Program-made: the position numbers and the translations under genes | In this document: positions 314-63,471 of the stretch, one piece after another | Layout: each line of letters begins with the position of its first letter | Numbering within the stretch: the stretch's first letter is position 1 | Notes under the pieces: model-generated | What the model saw: the letters and a program-made list of their open reading frames with translations, nothing else | Databases searched by the model: none | What the model was told of the DNA's origin: nothing | From: a virus | Taxonomy: Duplodnaviria; Caudoviricetes | Direction: 5' to 3' (one strand) | DNA: 64,000 nucleotides | Virus record (IMG/VR): IMGVR_UViG_3300011008_000034 | Coordinates: 1-64,000 of that record

Positions 314-520
314 AGAAATCACCTCCTCTTTTTATATTATACCATATTGTTTAATTATTTTAAACATATTTTTATGTTTTTTATAAATATTCACTACTTG
401 TATGTATATTAAAATTTTAAAAAAACAATTGGTTTTTTATAAGGGTGTTTAACACATTTACTAAAAAAATAAAGTAGATAAATCAGTCATCCTTCTAAAA
501 TATTTTTGGAGGTGAAGGAT

Positions 521-1825
521 ATGAACGTTTATGAAGCATTTCAAGAACGTATGGCATATATTACACAAAACTTCGATATAATCTGCATATCATTTTCTGG
601 TGGTAAAGATTCCGGAGTTTTATTAAATTTAGTTATGAAATATATTGATGACCATCATCTTGATATAAAACCTTTGGTTATGCATCAAGATGTCGAAGCA
701 CAATATACTTTAACTACAGAATATGTAACTAGAACATATAAAAAACTAACAGAGGAGGGACGAATTAAACCCTATTGGTGTTGTCAACCAATTCGTTTAG
801 GTGTGGCTACAAGTGTTCATCAGTTTTCATGGTTTCCATGGAATAACAAAGAAAAGGATAAGTGGGTAAGACCATTACCTGATTTTCCCGTAAAAACCGA
901 AGAAAATTTTAATTTTCCTGGGTTTTACTTTGGTATGGATTATCATGACCATTTTAAAGCATTTGAAGAGTATATTTACAGTCAAAATCCTGGTAAAAAA
1001 ATGATTTGTTTATCAGGTATTCGTACACAAGAATCACTAAATCGTTATCGTGCTGTATATAATAAAGTACATATGCATAATGGAATTCCTTGGACTTGTT
1101 TAATCAATGAAGAGATTCCAGATTTAGTAGAAGCTTATCCAATTTTCGATTTTTCAGTCAATGATATTTGGGTATGTAATTACAAATTTGGATTTGACTA
1201 TAATAAGATTTATGACAAAATGCATTTAGCAGGAGCAACGCCATCACAAATGCGAGTCGCCTCTCCATTTCACGATGCTGCTCAAAAAACATTAGCATTA
1301 TTTCAAATCATTGAACCGAAAATTTGGGACAAGTTAATCAATCGTGTACAAGGCGCAGCCTTCACAGCAAGGTATGCAAATACTAAATTATTTGGCGAAA
1401 AATTAAAAAATCCACCAAACAATTTAAATTGGCGACAATTCACAAGATTTTTGTTAAGAACTTTGCCAGAAAAAACTAGAGACCATTATAAATCAAAATT
1501 TATGACATCTTTGTTATTCTGGCATAAAATTGGTGGAGCTGTTGATAATGAAACCATTAATTTATTAAAGGAAAAAGGCTATAATATCGAGGAAAATGGC
1601 ACCTCGGCGTTTTCCAGACAAGGCAAAACAAAAATCATCTTTAAAGGATTATTACCTGATAATACAGATGATATTCCGAATAAAGACGTTCCTTCATGGA
1701 AACGCATGTGCAAATGTATTTTGAAAAACGATATCGCTTGCCAAACCATGGGATTCGGATTAACAGCTGAACAAACAAAAATAATTAATGCTATTCGTGA
1801 TAGTCATAAAAAAGGTAAAATGTAA
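521..1825 (+). CDS. PAPS-reductase-family / DUF3440 protein (IbrA/YbdN-like)
   Basis: SFSGGKDS PP-loop, GIRTQESLNR, YPIFD, QMRVASPF, C-terminal PSWKRMCKCILKND..C..MGFG; start moved to ATG 521 after the GGAGG RBS. Confidence 0.85.
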   Translation: MNVYEAFQERMAYITQNFDIICISFSGGKDSGVLLNLVMKYIDDHHLDIKPLVMHQDVEAQYTLTTEYVTRTYKKLTEEGRIKPYWCCQPIRLGVATSVHQFSWFPWNNKEKDKWVRPLPDFPVKTEENFNFPGFYFGMDYHDHFKAFEEYIYSQNPGKKMICLSGIRTQESLNRYRAVYNKVHMHNGIPWTCLINEEIPDLVEAYPIFDFSVNDIWVCNYKFGFDYNKIYDKMHLAGATPSQMRVASPFHDAAQKTLALFQIIEPKIWDKLINRVQGAAFTARYANTKLFGEKLKNPPNNLNWRQFTRFLLRTLPEKTRDHYKSKFMTSLLFWHKIGGAVDNETINLLKEKGYNIEENGTSAFSRQGKTKIIFKGLLPDNTDDIPNKDVPSWKRMCKCILKNDIACQTMGFGLTAEQTKIINAIRDSHKKGKM

Positions 1826-2061: not shown

Positions 2062-3582
2062 ATGAAAATAGTAGCTTATGTATTAGATAAAAATGGAAAA
2101 CCATTAATGCCCTGTCATAGTTATGGCAGAGTAAAAAAATGGTTAAAAAAGAAAGAGACTAAAATTGTTAAATATAAGCCTTTTACTATCCAATTTTTTA
2201 GAGAAACAACACATAATGTAGATAAATGTATATTAGGTATTGACCCTGGTCGTACTAACATTGGATTATGTGTTATTAATGAGAAAGGTGAAGAATTATT
2301 TAGCAGTAATGTTGTTACTAGAAACAAACAGATTCCTAATTTAATGGAAGAACGTTTAGGACATAGACAACTTAGAAGAAAATATAGAAGATTAAGAAGA
2401 AAAAGAAGATTTTTAAAATACAATCCTCAATTAAAAAACAATACTATTATTCGACGATTGCCTCATTATAGTGTTGATGTAGAATTTAAATTAATCAAAA
2501 ATAAACAATCGCGTTTTTGTAATCGCAAGCGTAAAGAAGGATGGCTTACTCCTACTGCTACTCAATTACTTCGTACACATGTAAATCTTGTGAAAAAGAT
2601 TCAGAAGTTTTTACCTATTAGTGAGATTACATTGGAATTAAATTCTTTTGATTTTGCTAAAATGGAAAATCCTAATATTAAAAATTGGGAATATCAAAAA
2701 GGTAAATTGTTTGGATTTAAAAATAAAAATGAATATGTTTCTCATCAACAAGATGGTCATTGCTTGTTTTGCAAACATAACATTGAATATTATCATCATG
2801 TAGTATGGTTATCCAAAGGTGGTAGTGATACTGTTGATAATATTGCAGGAGTTTGTTTAAAACATCATGATTTGATTCATAAAGAACAAAAATGGGATGA
2901 TAAATGTGTTCAAAAACATGGTGGATTATTGAAAAAATATGGAGCTTTATCTGTATTAAATCAGATTAAAAACCAACTTGTAGAACAGTTAAGTAATATA
3001 TTCCCTTTAAATTGTACTACTGGATTTGAAACATATCGAATTCGTAATGATTTAATTTTAAATAAAGACCATTATATTGATGCATGGTGTATTGCTGTTT
3101 CTTCATTAAAGCGATATAATGCACCTATTATTGAAAATAAATATGATATTAAACAATTTAGGCGTCATGATAGACAAATTGTTAATAAAAATTTAGATAG
3201 ATATTATAAGCAAAAAACAAAAACTATTTGTCAAAATAGACGCAAACAATTTGGTCAAAAAAATAATTCTTTAAAAGAATTTTTAGAAAAAAATCCTCAA
3301 TTTACAAATATGATAATAGATGTAAATAAAGTTCGTAAAAATAGTTCTTTTTATAGAATGGTTCATTCTAGTAATATGATTTTCATTTATAAAGGAAGTA
3401 AATCATTTGCTAATCGCCATCGTATTATGCCAGGAGTTGAATTTTTATATCAAGGAAAACGTTATATTGCTGACAAACAATCAAAAGGAAAATATTTTTA
3501 TTCAAATAATTTTGGAGAAAAAAGTATTCCAATTAAAGATTGTATTATTTTGAAGCGTAATGTTGGATTAGTTTTTGTCTAA
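2062..3582 (+). CDS. iscB: IscB RNA-guided endonuclease (IS200/IS605 OMEGA), copy 1
   Basis: PLMP motif, RuvC-I GIDPG, Arg-rich bridge helix, RuvC-II E, HNH (HHVV..SKGGSD...N...C..HH), RuvC-III DHYIDA; ATG 2062 after AAGGAG. Confidence 0.92.
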   Translation: MKIVAYVLDKNGKPLMPCHSYGRVKKWLKKKETKIVKYKPFTIQFFRETTHNVDKCILGIDPGRTNIGLCVINEKGEELFSSNVVTRNKQIPNLMEERLGHRQLRRKYRRLRRKRRFLKYNPQLKNNTIIRRLPHYSVDVEFKLIKNKQSRFCNRKRKEGWLTPTATQLLRTHVNLVKKIQKFLPISEITLELNSFDFAKMENPNIKNWEYQKGKLFGFKNKNEYVSHQQDGHCLFCKHNIEYYHHVVWLSKGGSDTVDNIAGVCLKHHDLIHKEQKWDDKCVQKHGGLLKKYGALSVLNQIKNQLVEQLSNIFPLNCTTGFETYRIRNDLILNKDHYIDAWCIAVSSLKRYNAPIIENKYDIKQFRRHDRQIVNKNLDRYYKQKTKTICQNRRKQFGQKNNSLKEFLEKNPQFTNMIIDVNKVRKNSSFYRMVHSSNMIFIYKGSKSFANRHRIMPGVEFLYQGKRYIADKQSKGKYFYSNNFGEKSIPIKDCIILKRNVGLVFV

Positions 3583-3593
3583 AGGAGTTTATC

Positions 3594-3884
3594 ATGAATA
3601 AGTCTGAAATGATTCAGTCAATAGATATTGAATTAGAAAATATTCAAAATGAAGTTTATCTTCGTATTAAACGTAAAATCATGGAGCGCATGTTAAAAAA
3701 CAAAATTCGTGATCATGATATTAATGAAATTCATATTGATATTTTTGATGAAAACATTTTTCTTTTATATACGGGAAGTTCAGAAAATATTGATTGGGTA
3801 AAAGATAGATTAATTGCTGATGGATTTGATATTGAATTAAAAGATTTTTTTACTTGTAAAGCTAAAATTGTTATTAAATGGTAA
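3594..3884 (+). CDS. hypothetical protein
   Basis: ORF with AAGGAG RBS, followed by a terminator. Confidence 0.7.
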   Translation: MNKSEMIQSIDIELENIQNEVYLRIKRKIMERMLKNKIRDHDINEIHIDIFDENIFLLYTGSSENIDWVKDRLIADGFDIELKDFFTCKAKIVIKW

Positions 3885-50610: not shown

Positions 50611-50663
50611 CTCTTTTCTTGAATTTATTATATCACAGAAAAGAGGTGTTGTAAATAGTTTTT
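50606..50663 (-). promoter_or_regulatory. sigma-A-type promoter inside an RBS-sequestering hairpin
   Basis: TTTACA(50655-50650)-17-TATAAT(50632-50627); perfect 14-bp arms 50637-50650 / 50606-50619. Confidence 0.8.
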
Positions 50664-51181
50664 TATATATTTTTCATTGCGACATTAAATGCTTCATCAA
50701 AAGTTTCAAAATTACCTATAGTTGCATATGAATCAATTGTATCACCACTAGTTGCTGAAAATTTATTTTTAACTTGCCCGCCGTATACATCATATCTTTT
50801 TACAAATGGGTCTTTTCTGACTAATTTATCTGGAGTAACATTTTCTTTGGTCGATAACATTTGTCCTTTTGTATCATGTGGCCATGAAATTAAAAATGTT
50901 TCATAACGTCCTGTTTTATTAATTTCTTTAAATGTATAGATTTCATTATAAAAAATAATTGGAAATTTTATAGTTTCCTTTTCTTTATTTGTTAATGCTT
51001 GATAACAATAAAATCCATAAAATCCAATTTCTCGATTAAATGTACCTACTCTTTCATATTTACTTTTATCTAATACATAACCATATCCTTTGTCTTCCAA
51101 AATTTTTAAACAATCTTCATCTGAAAATGGACTATTAGCATTATTTTGTACAGCACTAAAATGTTTCACTAATCGTTTCAT
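50663..51181 (-). CDS. module gene A, family A2 (MKRLVK leader)
   Basis: homologous to the C-half of 57731..58639 (FSDE.C, PIIFYNE.Y.F, ET.L.SW..D..G). Confidence 0.78.
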   Translation of the reverse strand: MKRLVKHFSAVQNNANSPFSDEDCLKILEDKGYGYVLDKSKYERVGTFNREIGFYGFYCYQALTNKEKETIKFPIIFYNEIYTFKEINKTGRYETFLISWPHDTKGQMLSTKENVTPDKLVRKDPFVKRYDVYGGQVKNKFSATSGDTIDSYATIGNFETFDEAFNVAMKNI

Positions 51182-57693: not shown

Positions 57694-57731
57694 ATTATAT
57701 CAAAAAAAAAGCTATTTGTAAATAGCTTTTT
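57694..57731 (-). promoter_or_regulatory. sigma-A-type promoter overlapping a terminator hairpin
   Basis: TTTACA(57722-57717)-17-TATAAT(57699-57694); AAAAAGCTATTT/AAATAGCTTTTT hairpin plus U tract. Confidence 0.78.
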
Positions 57732-58639
57732 TATTTTGAGTTTTTCTTAAGATTATTTTTTGCATCATTATAGGCATCATTATATGATGAATATATATCA
57801 CAAATGTTATATCCTGATGAAAGTGTTATTCCATGTGATTTTATTTGATTTTTAATATCTTTAGGATTATTATCAATTTTTGTTATAAATGTATCTCTTA
57901 TTTTTAATTTATCTTTTGTATTATTTTCCATAATGTTACCACTAACATCATACATCCAAGATAATAATATTGTTTCAAAATTCCCGTTAGAATCATTTTT
58001 TGAAAATGGATACATTTCATTATAAAAAATAATTGGATAATCAACATCTAATTCAGAAATTTGTCTAGAAAAAAATCCTTCACAACCTTGATTATTATAA
58101 TATGCACGTTTATATTTATTTTCATCAAGTAAATATGAATATTCTGATTTTCTTATGTAATCAATGCAAGTTTCATCTGAAAAACTAGGTTCTAATATAT
58201 TAGGAACCTTAGATAAGCGCTTCATTCTTTTGAATAATTTAGACTCTTTTAAGTCTGGTCTTCTTTCAGATTCTGAACTAGATGTATCTTTATAGTAATA
58301 ATCAATTTCATCTGGATCATAACTATCAGAAATAGATTTATTAATCAAATCAAGTTCGCTTTTGCTATGAATAGTGTCATCTTTGATTATCTTGTCAAGA
58401 TGCGAATCTAAAGCTAACCGGTCATCATTGTAATTTTGATGAATATTGTTATCATATAAAAAATATTGTAAGATACTTTCGTCCCAATTAGAAAAATGGT
58501 CTCTCATCCATGTCCTAAACATTTTTCCAATTTTATCACATTCAATTACATCATCGTCAAAAATGTCTAAACAGTATTTCATAGTCACTATCACTGACTT
58601 TCTTTTCCTACGAGGCTTAGCAAGTCGTTTCAAAATCAA
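57731..58639 (-). CDS. module gene A, family A2, with an extra N-terminal domain (fusion)
   Basis: leader KRLAK and internal MKRLSK at the start of the A2-homologous half. Confidence 0.75.
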   Translation of the reverse strand: MILKRLAKPRRKRKSVIVTMKYCLDIFDDDVIECDKIGKMFRTWMRDHFSNWDESILQYFLYDNNIHQNYNDDRLALDSHLDKIIKDDTIHSKSELDLINKSISDSYDPDEIDYYYKDTSSSESERRPDLKESKLFKRMKRLSKVPNILEPSFSDETCIDYIRKSEYSYLLDENKYKRAYYNNQGCEGFFSRQISELDVDYPIIFYNEMYPFSKNDSNGNFETILLSWMYDVSGNIMENNTKDKLKIRDTFITKIDNNPKDIKNQIKSHGITLSSGYNICDIYSSYNDAYNDAKNNLKKNSK

Positions 58640-58896
58640 TCACCTCTTTATATATAAAATAAAATTTAATTACATAAATAAATAACTATGCATAAAATTG
58701 TTCCAAAAATCATGCATATCCAAGACAACCCTACTAAAGGCTCGTTAGCCCATGATTTTCTTTTATTTTTTGCAAATCAATTGTTACATATAAAGTCATA
58801 GTGATTAGTATGACAATAAGAATTGAATCAACATTTATATTCATAGTAATTTATCTCCTTATAAAAATCCCCCTCAATTAGAGGAGGATTTTATTC

Positions 58897-60303
58897 TTAC
58901 TTCTTTCTTCTTTTCTTAAAGACTTGGATTTCTTTTTCCTTTTTACCATCAATAATGGAGAAGATATTATTTGCAAATAATTCGCGATATCCCCAAACAA
59001 CTACTTCATCATCATTGTATTTATGGAACAAATCAAGATATTCATCAACAAAATCATCGTCAATTAAATACTTAATCATATCTTCTTCGGACTTGAATTT
59101 ATTATTGTCCTTAGTAGTATTGGCAAACATCTCTAACATCTGAGGACAAATAACATTTGTATCATATTCCATCTGAAGAATTTTATATCCATTTTCTATC
59201 ATTTCTTTTTGATGATTTTCGTCTTTAGCGATTTCCATCATTTCTTCAGCTGTTTCTCTAAGTTTTTCTCTATCACTAACAATCATAAATGGATGTTCAA
59301 GATTATAATCATAATATGTCCGTCCAATAGCATTAATCTTATTATGCTTTGCCCAATGAATATCAAGAACTGGAATTGCTCCACAATTAATAATTTCACA
59401 AGCAGTGTATTCCATTCTATCACCATATTCTTCAGGATGTTTATCTAAATGGAAGAAAGTACATCCAAACATAATCTGTGATAATTCTTCCATAGTTTCA
59501 TCATGAATATATTCTTTATAAACCTCAGCCATTCCCTTTTCGTTTGGTTTTGGACCACGTTTTTTATCAGTCATATCAATAGCATAAGGATTATCGTATA
59601 CGTCGGTTTTCGCTCCCAAAGATCTCTCAATACCTTTTAATACAATTTTAAAATCAGGGTCCAATTCCTTAATGTAAGGTGATAAAAACAAAAGTCTATG
59701 AGGTTCTTTAGTAGATGTCCAACGACCTAAATACATAATTTGCTTTTTCTTATTAGTATTTGTGTTCCTAAATTTTGCTTGGTCTTCTAAATCAAACCAA
59801 AGAGACATCCGTTTTACACGATCTTTTTTAGATGGGAACATTTCCGAACAAGCTTTATTAAAGAAAGTAGTTGGTCCATATCCCATAATTAAATCCATAC
59901 TATTAAAAACCGGAATCATATAAGGGATTTTATCAATATAAGTTTTATGAACTTCATGGATAAAACCTACACGAATTGGATTATTTACTCCATTAATAAT
60001 TTTTTCATAAAAAGCTTTTACATATTCTGGACCAGATTTGATATACGGATATGAAAAGAAAATTACTACATCTTTTTGATTTAAATCTTCTTGCATTTTA
60101 TCTAAATCTTCAATTTTATATGGTGTATATCTAATATTATGAGAATTTGTACGAGACATTTTTTTCCCAGCATACCCATAAATTTGAAGGTCTACACCGT
60201 TTTTGTCGCACCATGTTTGAAGTTGATGTGCACAAAAAGAACATCCACAACCTTCTACACTTCGGCCTAATATTAATGCATATTTTTTGTCTTTGTAACT
60301 CAT
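58897..60303 (-). CDS. DNA alpha-glucosyltransferase-like GT-B glycosyltransferase (T4 AGT homolog)
   Basis: N-terminal ILGRSVEGCG.......W..KNG, HE, Y.GR....K, MEYT..E...CG.IPV match recalled T4 AGT motifs. Confidence 0.78.
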   Translation of the reverse strand: MSYKDKKYALILGRSVEGCGCSFCAHQLQTWCDKNGVDLQIYGYAGKKMSRTNSHNIRYTPYKIEDLDKMQEDLNQKDVVIFFSYPYIKSGPEYVKAFYEKIINGVNNPIRVGFIHEVHKTYIDKIPYMIPVFNSMDLIMGYGPTTFFNKACSEMFPSKKDRVKRMSLWFDLEDQAKFRNTNTNKKKQIMYLGRWTSTKEPHRLLFLSPYIKELDPDFKIVLKGIERSLGAKTDVYDNPYAIDMTDKKRGPKPNEKGMAEVYKEYIHDETMEELSQIMFGCTFFHLDKHPEEYGDRMEYTACEIINCGAIPVLDIHWAKHNKINAIGRTYYDYNLEHPFMIVSDREKLRETAEEMMEIAKDENHQKEMIENGYKILQMEYDTNVICPQMLEMFANTTKDNNKFKSEEDMIKYLIDDDFVDEYLDLFHKYNDDEVVVWGYRELFANNIFSIIDGKKEKEIQVFKKRRKK

Positions 60304-60413
60304 TATATCATTCCTTTCTTATCTTATGAAAATTATAATAATTAATCTCCTTTCCATTTAAAATATAGAAAAAAAATGTATTTTTTATCGCTAACAAATT
60401 TAAAAATGTGTTA

Positions 60414-60872
60414 TTATGTTTTATTTTTTTGAGTTTTCATAGTTTTATATTTTTCATCATTAATTTTTATGCATTTATCATTCGTTACATTTTTATTGAA
60501 ATAAACTTGAAAATTTTTATTATATTCAAATGACGAGGTTATATAAAATGTAATTTTTACAGTATTCACATCAACGATTGTTAATTTTATGTCATTTTTC
60601 TTTGCATATTCAACTCCTTCATATAAAATAACAAAATCATATTTGTTCGTTCCATCATTTAATTTTCTTTTATTAATAAAATGTACTACTTTATCATTAA
60701 TGTAGTCAATTGCATTTGTAAAAAAGAAAAAATACATTTTATCATTATCTTCATTTAAAATTGAATATATACAAATAGAATTTTTATGTTTTGTTAATTT
60801 TAAAAAAGATAACATAATTTTATCAGCAATACTTTGTAATCTCATTTCTTCAATGTTATATATAATAATCAC
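60414..60872 (-). CDS. orphan module gene B, family B2
   Basis: paralog of 57190..57666; iscB occupies the A position. Confidence 0.75.
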   Translation of the reverse strand: MIIIYNIEEMRLQSIADKIMLSFLKLTKHKNSICIYSILNEDNDKMYFFFFTNAIDYINDKVVHFINKRKLNDGTNKYDFVILYEGVEYAKKNDIKLTIVDVNTVKITFYITSSFEYNKNFQVYFNKNVTNDKCIKINDEKYKTMKTQKNKT

Positions 60873-60888
60873 TTCCTTTCACGAATAT

Positions 60889-60926
60889 ATTATACCATAA
60901 AAAAAGTTATTTGTAAATAGCTTTTT
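60889..60926 (-). promoter_or_regulatory. sigma-A-type promoter overlapping a terminator hairpin
   Basis: TTTACA(60917-60912)-17-TATAAT(60894-60889). Confidence 0.75.
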
Positions 60927-61002
60927 ATTTATTTGATTTTGATATATTTAAAATTTTTATAATCAGTTTTTCAATTTTCATTTTTCTTCTAATAAATCTG
61001 GC

Positions 61003-61036
61003 CTTCGTTCTGATTCGGAACTAGATGTGTCTTTTA
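61003..61036. repeat. 34-bp direct repeat flanking iscB copy 2 (downstream copy)
   Basis: 32/34 identical to 62688..62721; related to 58260..58292. Confidence 0.9.
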
Positions 61037-62488
61037 TTCAAAAACTAATCCTTGATTTCTTTTTAAGATTTTACATTCTTTTAGTTTTGCAAATCCTTTT
61101 TCAAAAGATTTACAAATAAGATATTTTTCGTGACTTGTTCCTTCACATATATATCTTTTTTGTTTATGTAAAAATATTGCTCCTGGATATAATCGTTCCA
61201 TTTGTTTATAAATATGTCTTCCTTGAACAACAATCAAATTACTTACATTTTGAGGATATTTTTTTGCATATTCTTCTAAAGAATCTACATTCTGTGCAGT
61301 CTTTTTATGACGATTTTTACACACTATTTTTGTTTTATAATAATATAGTCTATCAATTATTCGATAACACATTTTACGATCATGTCTTCTAAATTGCCTA
61401 ATATTATACTTATTTTCAATAATAGGTTGTTTATATTGATTTAAAGACGAAACAGCAATACACCAAGCATCAATATAGTGATCCTTATTTAATTCTAAAT
61501 CATTTCTAATTTGATAAGTTTCATAACCAGTTGTACAATTCAAGGGTAAGATTTGACTTAATTGTTCTATTAATTGATTTTTAATTTGATTTAATACAGA
61601 TAATGCACCATATTTTTTTAAAAGTCCACCATGTTTTTGAACACATTTTTTATCCCATTTTTTATCTTTATGAATTAAATCATGATGTTTAAAACATACA
61701 CCAGCAATATTATCTACAGTATCATTACCACCACGACTTCTCCAAATAACGTGATGATAATGTTCAATACCATGCTTACAAAATAAGCATTTTCCTTCTT
61801 GTTGATGATAAACATATTCTTCTTTATTTTTAAATCCAAATAACTTACCTTTAGCGTATTCCCAATTTTTAATATTAGGATTTTCCAATTTAGCTATATC
61901 AAATGAATTAATTTCTAATACCAATTCGGATATAGGTAAGAATTTTTGAATCTTTTTTACAAGATTAATATGCGTACGTAATAACTGAGTCGCAGTAGGA
62001 GTTAACCATCCTTCTTTCCGCTTACGATTACAAAAACGTGATTGTTTATTTTTGATTAATTTGAATTTTACATCAACGCTATAATGAGGTAACCGTCTAA
62101 TAATTACTCTATCTTTTTGCAAAGGAAAATATTTTTTAAATCTACGAATACGTTTTTTTCTTCTATAAAAACGTCTCATATATCTACTTGCACGACGATC
62201 GTCCATTAATGTTTTTATTTTTTTATTTCTAGTAGTTACATTACTAGAAAACAATTCATTACTTTTTTCATCAACAACACATAATCCAATATTTGTTCTT
62301 CCAGGATCTATTCCTAAGATACATTTTTGTGTTTTAGTATCAGATGTATCTCTAAGAAATTGAATGGTAAATGGTTTATATTCAACTATTTTTACCTCTT
62401 TTCTTTTTAACCATCTTTTTACTCTGCCATAACTATGACATGGCATTAATGGTTTTCCATTCTTATCTAAAACATAAATGCAATTCAT
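61034..62488 (-). CDS. iscB: IscB RNA-guided endonuclease, copy 2
   Basis: PLMP, GIDPG, bridge helix, HNH, DHYIDA; highly similar to copy 1 except at the C-terminus. Confidence 0.92.
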   Translation of the reverse strand: MNCIYVLDKNGKPLMPCHSYGRVKRWLKRKEVKIVEYKPFTIQFLRDTSDTKTQKCILGIDPGRTNIGLCVVDEKSNELFSSNVTTRNKKIKTLMDDRRASRYMRRFYRRKKRIRRFKKYFPLQKDRVIIRRLPHYSVDVKFKLIKNKQSRFCNRKRKEGWLTPTATQLLRTHINLVKKIQKFLPISELVLEINSFDIAKLENPNIKNWEYAKGKLFGFKNKEEYVYHQQEGKCLFCKHGIEHYHHVIWRSRGGNDTVDNIAGVCFKHHDLIHKDKKWDKKCVQKHGGLLKKYGALSVLNQIKNQLIEQLSQILPLNCTTGYETYQIRNDLELNKDHYIDAWCIAVSSLNQYKQPIIENKYNIRQFRRHDRKMCYRIIDRLYYYKTKIVCKNRHKKTAQNVDSLEEYAKKYPQNVSNLIVVQGRHIYKQMERLYPGAIFLHKQKRYICEGTSHEKYLICKSFEKGFAKLKECKILKRNQGLVFE

Positions 62489-62499
62489 TAATTATTTTC

Positions 62500-62687
62500 C
62501 TTCCTTATAAATAAGTGAAATTTTTAATGATTATAAACCACTGAATTTCTTAACAGTTTTAGTTTCCATGGCATTTATACATATAATCTCTGTAGAGCAT
62601 TCGAGCTTGGAATCACCCCAAGGTACACATGTATTCGACTATATATTTTGCCTAGATAGATACCCCTATTCATTAATCAGATCATTT
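62500..62687 (-). ncRNA. putative omegaRNA scaffold of IscB copy 2
   Basis: core 62516-62627 is conserved with the copy 1 leader; ends are approximate. Confidence 0.65.
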
Positions 62688-62721
62688 CTTCGTTCTGATT
62701 CGGAACTGGATGTATCTTTTA
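62688..62721. repeat. 34-bp direct repeat flanking iscB copy 2 (upstream copy, at the expected guide position)
   Basis: CTTCGTTCTGATTCGGAACTGGATGTATCTTTTA. Confidence 0.9.
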
Positions 62722-62994
62722 AATAAAATAAACTACTTTATCATCTATTTTTATATGGTCGTTAAAAAACGTATAACTTTTTTCTTTTAAATGTATTGTT
62801 TTATGATTTTCCCTAAACTTATTGTGTAATACAATAGGGCGCTTAAATGGTCTTTTAATAATGATTTTATCGCGAATAACATCGTAAAAAATAATTTCGT
62901 CTAGCTTGACAATTTGTTTCTTATTAAATATAGCATGAAAAATTTTTTTAATGTAATTCCAAATAATCATATTTGCACCTCTTGCATATAGCAT
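62719..62994 (-). CDS. hypothetical protein
   Basis: GAGGTG RBS before ATG 62970. Confidence 0.6.
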   Translation of the reverse strand: MLYARGANMIIWNYIKKIFHAIFNKKQIVKLDEIIFYDVIRDKIIIKRPFKRPIVLHNKFRENHKTIHLKEKSYTFFNDHIKIDDKVVYFI

Positions 62995-63165
62995 TTAATA
63001 AAATGTAAAAATTTAATTTTAAAATTTTCTTCCATATTAAAATTATAAATCTTTAGACAATTTTTAACATTCAGTTTTTAGAAAATTTGTTGTTAGCTAT
63101 TTACAATTGGTAATTATTGGTATATAATCAGTTTTGTAAATAGTTAGAGGAAAGGATGAAGCGCT

Positions 63166-63471
63166 ATGAATAATGTTGAGGTGTCCACTGAAAAATTGAT
63201 TGAGGAATCCATTGAGAGAGGCAGGAAATTCATTGAACGATTGAAAAAGTCTAAGCAAAACGTTGTAGATGCCTCGCAATACGTAGTTCCTAGAAATGTT
63301 ACCAAAGAAGAATTCCAAGAAGCAATTGACAGATTCAATATAGCAAATAATCAAGTAATAAATTGTAATATGGAACATTTTGATACGTCATGCATGAAAT
63401 TGACATTGGAAGAAACAGAACTGAACAAATTATTTTTAGCAGCAAAGCTTTACAAACAACAAATTGCATAA
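63166..63471 (+). CDS. small helical protein, possibly DUF2508/YaaL-like
   Basis: RBS, promoter-like TTTACA...TATAAT upstream, terminator downstream; family call is weak. Confidence 0.55.
   Translation: MNNVEVSTEKLIEESIERGRKFIERLKKSKQNVVDASQYVVPRNVTKEEFQEAIDRFNIANNQVINCNMEHFDTSCMKLTLEETELNKLFLAAKLYKQQIA

Follow-up and report, generated by a model that had tools for sequence, protein, structure and literature searches.

A 34-bp duplication brackets an IscB-omegaRNA cassette that stands in place of a phage gene: a candidate for RNA-guided homing

IscB proteins and their omegaRNAs make up the elements known as OMEGA (for obligate mobile element-guided activity), of the IS200/IS605 family (Altae-Tran 2021, Meers et al. 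2023). Here, we analyze one IscB-omegaRNA cassette, iscB copy 2, in the first 64 kb (hereafter the window) of a 177.6-kb phage record of IMG/VR, IMGVR_UViG_3300011008_000034, which has 27% G+C and a CheckV completeness of 36% and contains three iscB genes. Like the described elements, the cassette encodes a guided_IscB equivalog (RRXRR N-terminus, split RuvC domain with an HNH insert), has a structured RNA directly upstream of the open reading frame (ORF) with the covarying pseudoknot and the canonical core motifs, is co-oriented with the upstream gene, and has no tnpA nearby, as is the case for about 98% of iscB loci. It differs from them in that no left end (LE) is recognizable after the stop codon and TnpA-type ends are absent, the P1 domain is cut to a single hairpin and Rfam HEARO is unmatched, the host is a large AT-rich phage in which the cassette occupies the place of a phage gene, and the whole is bracketed by a 34-bp duplication.

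It has been proposed that OMEGA nucleases act as homing endonucleases between co-infecting phages or plasmids; to our knowledge, few natural cases offer occupied as well as empty alleles. The closest protein-based parallel is provided by the free-standing homing endonucleases of T4-like phages (Seg and Mob), which are known for intronless homing and localized marker exclusion (PMC13565253). As in these systems, conserved phage genes flank the nuclease gene here and close relatives are without it, the nearby sequence is mosaic (in this case the 3' 400 nt of iscB), and spread would occur by cutting of the naive allele and repair from the donor. In contrast to them, the target would be recognized by an RNA guide rather than by the protein, and the insertion deletes a gene (gene A) instead of sitting between genes. 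On sequence comparisons, the locus is a good natural candidate for RNA-guided homing between phages.

The bracketing repeat and the lost A gene

In the ORF calls of the window, all genes around the locus are on the minus strand, in the order o91, omegaRNA, iscB, B2, alpha-glucosyltransferase, a small membrane ORF, A2 and B1. The cassette and the A-like segments are as follows.

62994-62719, minus strand: o91, a hypothetical ORF of 91 aa
62721 to 62688, minus strand: upstream copy of the repeat (R), TAA AAGATACATCCAGTTCCGAATCAGAACGAAG; the TAA is the o91 stop
62717 to 62658, minus strand: P1-like hairpin, 20 bp, folding energy -18.2 kcal/mol; R forms the 5' arm and loop, the next 30 nt the 3' arm
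62489-62657, minus strand: omegaRNA core, aligned with those of iscB copy 1 and of the related loci L008, L009 and L057
62652-62649, minus strand: pseudoknot strand GGCA, pairing with TGCC at 62573-62570, at the site of the covarying pseudoknot of canonical relatives
61034-62488, minus strand: iscB copy 2, 484 aa, intact
61036 to 61003, minus strand: downstream copy of the repeat (R'), TAA AAGACACATCTAGTTCCGAATCAGAACGAAG; the TAA is the iscB stop
60981-61036, minus strand: R' plus 8 further A-like codons, KDTSSSESERRPDLLEEK and a stop (tblastn against A2 aa 112-134)
60889-60963, minus strand: remnant of an A 3' end and A-B intergenic region, 73% identical to 57694-57768 downstream of A2
58639-57731, minus strand: A2, an A-family gene
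58292 to 58260, minus strand: third copy of the repeat, within A2, encoding the inter-domain linker

The first-pass annotation had described a direct repeat whose copies each start at a TAA stop and together bracket omegaRNA and iscB, and repeat and pattern searches confirmed it: 62688-62721 and 61003-61036 are identical at 32 of 34 positions, including the last 21 nt, and enclose omegaRNA plus iscB. Allowing up to 3 mismatches, we found three matches in the window and none in 100 shuffles, and the whole 177.6-kb record contains the same three sites and no others. It had also been claimed that the third copy, in A2 (58260-58292), differs only by synonymous changes; the sequences and tblastn agree, with 4-6 differing positions, all synonymous in the A2 frame (KDTSSSESERR). 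The length of 34 bp, by contrast, stands for the upstream copy only, in which similarity to the A gene is confined to about 31-34 nt, whereas the likeness of R' to A2 extends over 69 nt (23 aa, 74% identity, A2 aa 112-134).

This extended likeness is part of a series of A remnants that are colinear with A2: 69 nt at 61049-60981 (A2 codons 112-134), then 60889-60963, and then B2. Because of this arrangement, it is supported that an A paralog once stood between o91 and B2 and that iscB took the place of the remainder. R' is then the in-situ linker of the resident A gene, and R a duplicate of R'.

Empty alleles were found in related phages. Homologs of o91 occur on contigs L011 (P0121, 89% identity) and L012 (P0122, 74%), and on both contigs an intact A gene comes after the o91 stop, in the form TAAAAGA/GGTGATT with the A-gene ribosome-binding site (RBS) and an A-type start, MKRLAKPRRKRKSVIV. 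The similarity between the window and L011 stops exactly at TAAAAGA. The occupied alleles are those of the window, of L067 (the same strain, 100% identical), and of L008, L009 and L010, such that both states, with breakpoints at the cassette, are represented, as intronless homing requires. These o91-then-A alleles, the A scraps and the orphan gene B2 support the view of the first-pass annotation that iscB replaced an A gene. The junction between iscB and the A fragment is also present in L008 and L010, whose IscB is 95% identical, and in L009 (82%), so the event is old.

The protein is a true IscB by its matches to Pfam RRXRR (PF14239, 3.3e-49) and NCBIfam guided_IscB (NF040563, 235.9 bits versus a cutoff of 175), and it has HNH matches among the phrogs. 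The RuvC and HNH residues D61, E192, H245/H246, N260, H269, H337 and D340 are invariant across 20 homologs in the alignment. Differences at the three codon positions number 12/13/47 versus L008 and 71/39/138 versus L009, a pattern of purifying selection. The divergence of the omegaRNA core is about half or less that of neighboring non-coding DNA and, because of this and of the selection on IscB, the system looks active.

The last ~400 nt of iscB copy 2 (61034-61440) contain 5 differences versus L008, compared with 7-15 per 150 nt elsewhere, and the region is near-identical between strains (window, L008 and L009) that differ by 5-17% in the rest of iscB, with a sharp transition at the stop codon. 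A recent conversion tract is one possible cause of this near-identity, and a swap of the domain that interacts with the target-adjacent motif (TAM) is another. Between copies 1 and 2, identity in the region is only 41%.

The two copies of the repeat in the window differ at only 2/34 positions, which suggests either a younger duplication or homogenization of copies. R' and the downstream copy of L008 differ at 7/36, mostly at codon third positions. Such a bias would be explained by continued translation of the A fragment downstream of iscB, perhaps as an extension of the IscB C-terminus or in a micro-ORF, and 7/9 window-L008 differences are at third positions of the DTSSSESERR frame (binomial p about 0.008, our own estimate). 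However, a TGA immediately upstream closes this frame, no ATG, GTG or TTG start is present, a -1 slip on the U-run lands on the same TGA, and L009 has a 2-nt deletion inside the fragment. The divergence of 19%, versus about 14% in neighboring non-coding DNA, also does not indicate clear constraint. Translation of the fragment is therefore highly improbable; frameshift and read-through were both considered and dropped.

The 5' end of the omegaRNA and the candidate guides

The core of the copy 2 omegaRNA could be aligned with canonical omegaRNAs. Rfam gave no family match at the gathering score in the window and none at E<=10 for the two omegaRNA regions, and nhmmer with the subfamily core detected copies 1 and 2 and no further copy on the 177-kb record. 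To define the 5' end, we checked P1 and the pseudoknot directly in eight canonical relatives; a covariance model was abandoned because of poor MAFFT alignment of the P1 domain. In these eight RNAs, the scaffold opens with nucleotides that pair with a stretch ending just before GCAG (8/8 in four RNAs and 3-6/8 in the other four). The following 4 nt are joined in a pseudoknot to the 4 nt that precede (U)AUGG, with 4/4 pairs in all eight and 5 different pair sets. The same omegaRNA was found at different sites in L061 and L063, and the similarity begins exactly at the P1 5' strand, which in L063 directly follows the stop codon of the upstream gene.

In the window, the corresponding place is occupied by the hairpin at 62717 to 62658, which closes 5 nt before the pseudoknot strand GGCA. 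Its folding is significant (z -3.4 and -3.55; 1 and 0 of 200 shuffles fold as well), whereas the contexts of R' and of the A2 copy do not fold (z 0.2 and -0.3). In L057, an unrelated 11-bp hairpin (z -3.0) closes 4 nt before GGCA. The distance from the upstream stop to the iscB ATG is 230 nt for copy 2, 236 nt for copy 1 and 221 nt for L057; canonical scaffolds measure 221-265 nt, and a scaffold that began with P1 at 62717 would measure 229 nt. In geometry, the predicted hairpin matches P1.

Three guide candidates can be named at the locus, namely the end of o91, the repeat, and a fossil guide just 5' of GGCA, and the guide boundary and the cleavage target are what we infer from the comparisons given here. 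The hairpin is at the P1 position and canonical guides are immediately 5' of P1; for this reason, we consider the 3' end of o91 (its last 16-20 nt) the guide at a confidence that is about evenly balanced. In the RNA, R would pair with the following 30 nt to give the first, P1-like stem of a shortened omegaRNA, and the guide would come from the final 16-20 nt of o91, transcribed by read-through from the promoter of that gene. The nuclease would then cut related phages without iscB at their o91-A junction, and the cassette would spread when the cut is repaired from the genome with iscB, a form of RNA-guided intronless homing that replaces A. L011 carries the protospacer for the o91 end with one TAM-distal mismatch, and AGAGGTG comes next where the window has the scaffold; such a pair of guide and target would have the classical design of a homing nuclease. 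As a whole, the reading that we tentatively favor, at somewhat less than an even chance, is that of a TnpA-less omegaRNA-iscB cassette in a wrecked A gene, with R as an arm of P1, a guide from the o91 end, and homing.

A sigma-70-like site upstream of o91 (63113-63140) is likely the source of a transcript over o91, omegaRNA and iscB, and no terminator-like sites were found within 60300-63200.

The first-pass annotation had placed the repeat itself at the guide position. In this case, the cassette would have inserted in the A linker, the scaffold would start from 62687, and the 3' end of the upstream copy (..CCGAAUCAGAACGAAG) would target A alleles of related phages, with A2 escaping through synonymous mismatches and DNA modification. 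The similarity of R to the A gene indeed ends at 62688, about 200 nt before the ATG, and by the logic of IS200/605 elements the guide is supplied by the sequence that flanks the scaffold on its 5' side (Meers et al. 2023). A2 has 3 mismatches in the last 16 nt, the phage has a glucosyltransferase (phrog_2888, 9e-79), and the 35 nt from 62687 to the pseudoknot strand are similar in length to P1 plus linker of L057 (32 nt). In addition, the closeness of the two window copies (2/34) relative to orthologous downstream copies (7/36) could reflect matching of guide and target. However, most of R is paired within a significant hairpin at the P1 site of canonical omegaRNAs, with 11/20 of the last nucleotides of the proposed guide paired (-18 kcal/mol), and canonical relatives have the guide immediately 5' of P1. 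No credible P1 is seen in the remaining 35 nt, where only a 4-bp ATAG/CTAT stem was found by eye, and sequence conservation in the subfamily starts only ~35 nt downstream of the repeat. A guide made of the repeat would also match R' at 21/21 positions, with a 3' context (GCCAGAT) nearly the same as that of A2 (ACCAGAC), so that the phage would target itself or A alleles would be spared too; avoidance of self-cleavage would need a TAM rule on the first base (G versus A) or a DNA modification that is equal genome-wide. Finally, no naive A allele with the target was found, as the metagenome pattern scan matched only L010, at its iscB-flanking copy. Taken together, the repeat is an unlikely guide.

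It is possible, though less likely still, that P1 was lost in the subfamily and that the scaffold starts from about GGCA (62652). This would leave as guide the 16-20 nt immediately before it (..GAAUAGGGGUAUCUAUCUA), a fossil carried from an earlier site when the cassette moved by illegitimate recombination, and the repeat would be a mere scar and the hairpin fortuitous. Copy 2, copy 1 and L057 are alike only from about AGGCAA onward, copy 1 is without a P1-like hairpin, and at the borders of the cassettes there are short repeats such as illegitimate recombination typically leaves. On the other hand, a hairpin matched by 0-1 of 200 shuffles and placed like P1 would have to be accidental, as would the unrelated one in L057. 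The candidate fossil guide is unmatched elsewhere in the genome and in all related loci compared, and the resulting scaffold of ~165 nt would be far below the 221-265 nt of relatives. The probability left by these three guide candidates falls to a non-functional RNA or something else.

Several observations weigh against the o91 end as guide and R as part of P1. In copy 1, no P1-like hairpin reaches significance (z 0.5). Copy 1, copy 2 and L057 have no sequence in common over their 5' 45-65 nt (p 0.3-0.7 for these variable regions), and by the usual criterion of conservation drop-off these would be flank and guide. The upstream ORF and iscB are 316 nt apart in the lineage of L008, L010 and P0141, versus 230 nt in the window. 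That the 5' arm of P1 is a copy of an A-gene segment has no explanation, and a scar model accounts neither for the 2/34 (R versus R') nor for the 7/36 (window versus L008) pattern. If R were plain flank from an insertion into the A linker, the IS200/605 logic would make R the guide.

The stem formed by R also resembles the duplex of CRISPR RNA repeat and tracrRNA anti-repeat in Cas9 systems, in that a duplex of ~20 bp lies immediately 3' of the guide position and one of its arms occurs two times as a direct repeat of 34 bp, a size also seen in CRISPR repeats. It differs from them in that there are only two copies, 1.7 kb apart, spacers and cas1 or cas2 are absent, and the repeat clearly comes from a protein-coding gene. 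The locus could be viewed as a natural intermediate between an omegaRNA and a system of CRISPR repeat and anti-repeat, in which the 34-bp unit would be the repeat and the 5' end of the omegaRNA core would hold its anti-repeat. If so, any transcript with the unit could bind the core in trans and contribute a guide from the sequence upstream of the unit, and the 3' end of the iscB mRNA plus R', and possibly the A2 mRNA, would be such transcripts of a modular, multi-guide IscB. We regard this possibility as very remote.

Recombination at the junctions and the neighborhood of the cassette

An alternative raised with the first-pass annotation, that the repeat is a recombination scar, fits the junctions. 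AAAGA precedes the repeat at all three sites (TTTAAAAGA/TACATCC, GAATAAAAGA/CACATCT and CTATAAAGA/TACATCT) and also occurs in the RBS context of the A gene (TAAAGA/GGTG; TATAAAGA/GGTGATT), at the RBS of A2 itself and at the start of the linker (TATAAAGA/TACATC). Because all junctions share this short homology, the repeat points to an insertion or replacement scar from short-homology recombination at AAAGA. Both copies could have arisen in this way, and recombination between the AAAGA of the A-gene RBS and that of the linker would lead to loss of the N-domain exactly as seen. The order of events is what we infer; every scenario tried requires one duplication of 31-34 nt.

Other cassettes of the subfamily have similar surroundings. 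A direct repeat that matches at 16/17 positions, AAGGAGTTTATYATGAA, encloses the ORF of iscB copy 1 (2050-2066 and 3582-3598). This is the RBS/start of copy 1 itself, which recurs as the RBS/start of the next gene (3594-3884), and recombination between the two could lose or gain the iscB ORF, leaving the omegaRNA fused to the next gene. In L057, a related metagenomic contig, the stop of an iscB (67% identical) is directly followed by a complete omegaRNA of the copy 2 subfamily (976-1196). What comes next is not an iscB but an unrelated membrane-protein-like gene, and this RNA is an orphan or, alternatively, serves as a second guide RNA. The repeat around copy 1 and the arrangement in L057 suggest that these cassettes are reshuffled by short-homology recombination and not by TnpA. 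An IS200/605 transposon would have an LE and a right end (RE) with subterminal hairpins and a Y1 transposase (TnpA) in cis or trans, and its transposition makes no target duplication. At the present locus, no LE exists because the iscB stop abuts the A fragment, and the 34-bp duplication is present. No Y1 transposase gene was seen in the window, and no search aimed at PF01797 was made on the record. We also considered R and R' as LE/RE-type TnpA hairpins and dropped this idea, as the repeat holds only a 4-bp GTTC/GAAC stem.

The remaining features of the neighborhood and the other iscB genes are as follows.

63113-63140, minus strand: sigma-70-like promoter TTTACA-16-AATAAT upstream of o91, 10/12, a consensus match only
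60917-60889, minus strand: B2 promoter, 11/12 consensus match
60872-60414, minus strand: B2, an orphan gene, paralog of B1 (tblastn 53% identity)
60303-58897, minus strand: alpha-glucosyltransferase (phrog_2888, 9e-79)
57666-57190, minus strand: B1, paralog of B2
2062-3582, plus strand: iscB copy 1, 68% identical to copy 2
about 86-87.5 kb of the record (locus L003, about 85987-87740): third iscB, G+C-rich and canonical

The omegaRNA of L003 is G+C-rich and fully canonical inside a phage of 27% G+C, with P1 (TCAACAAC/GTTGTTGA) and the GCAG-AGAC pseudoknot visible, and the third iscB looks like a recent acquisition from a bacterium.

The A, B and o91 proteins match no family in Pfam, PHROG, NCBIfam or PADLOC. 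The 36 nt that follow the upstream copy of the repeat have no homolog anywhere. No relative was found in the INPHARED phage collection, or in IMG/VR by protein search or by three DNA patterns. The A-family proteins (A2 at 57731-58639, A1 at 50663-51181, and one in L059) have a common C-domain of ~170 aa that begins with MKRLxK, and their N-domains are unrelated to each other or absent. The linker segment of A2 separates its N-domain from the C-domain common to A1 and P0123, both of which are without the DTSSSESERR linker; A2 looks like two ORFs fused via it. In L010, a close relative, a deletion (430-636, minus strand) joins the first ~17 codons of B2 to the last ~50 codons of the alpha-glucosyltransferase, and as a result of this fusion the strain is without B2 and without alpha-glucosyltransferase.

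Implications for phage-borne IscB

The locus provides an intact IscB, a conserved and shortened omegaRNA, empty alleles in related phages and a few concrete guide candidates, and RNA-guided homing in a phage of the hydroxymethylcytosine type thus becomes directly testable. It also suggests that in phages the movement and trimming of iscB cassettes can rely on short-homology recombination instead of TnpA, and that such recombination leaves target duplications which may be mistaken for guides.

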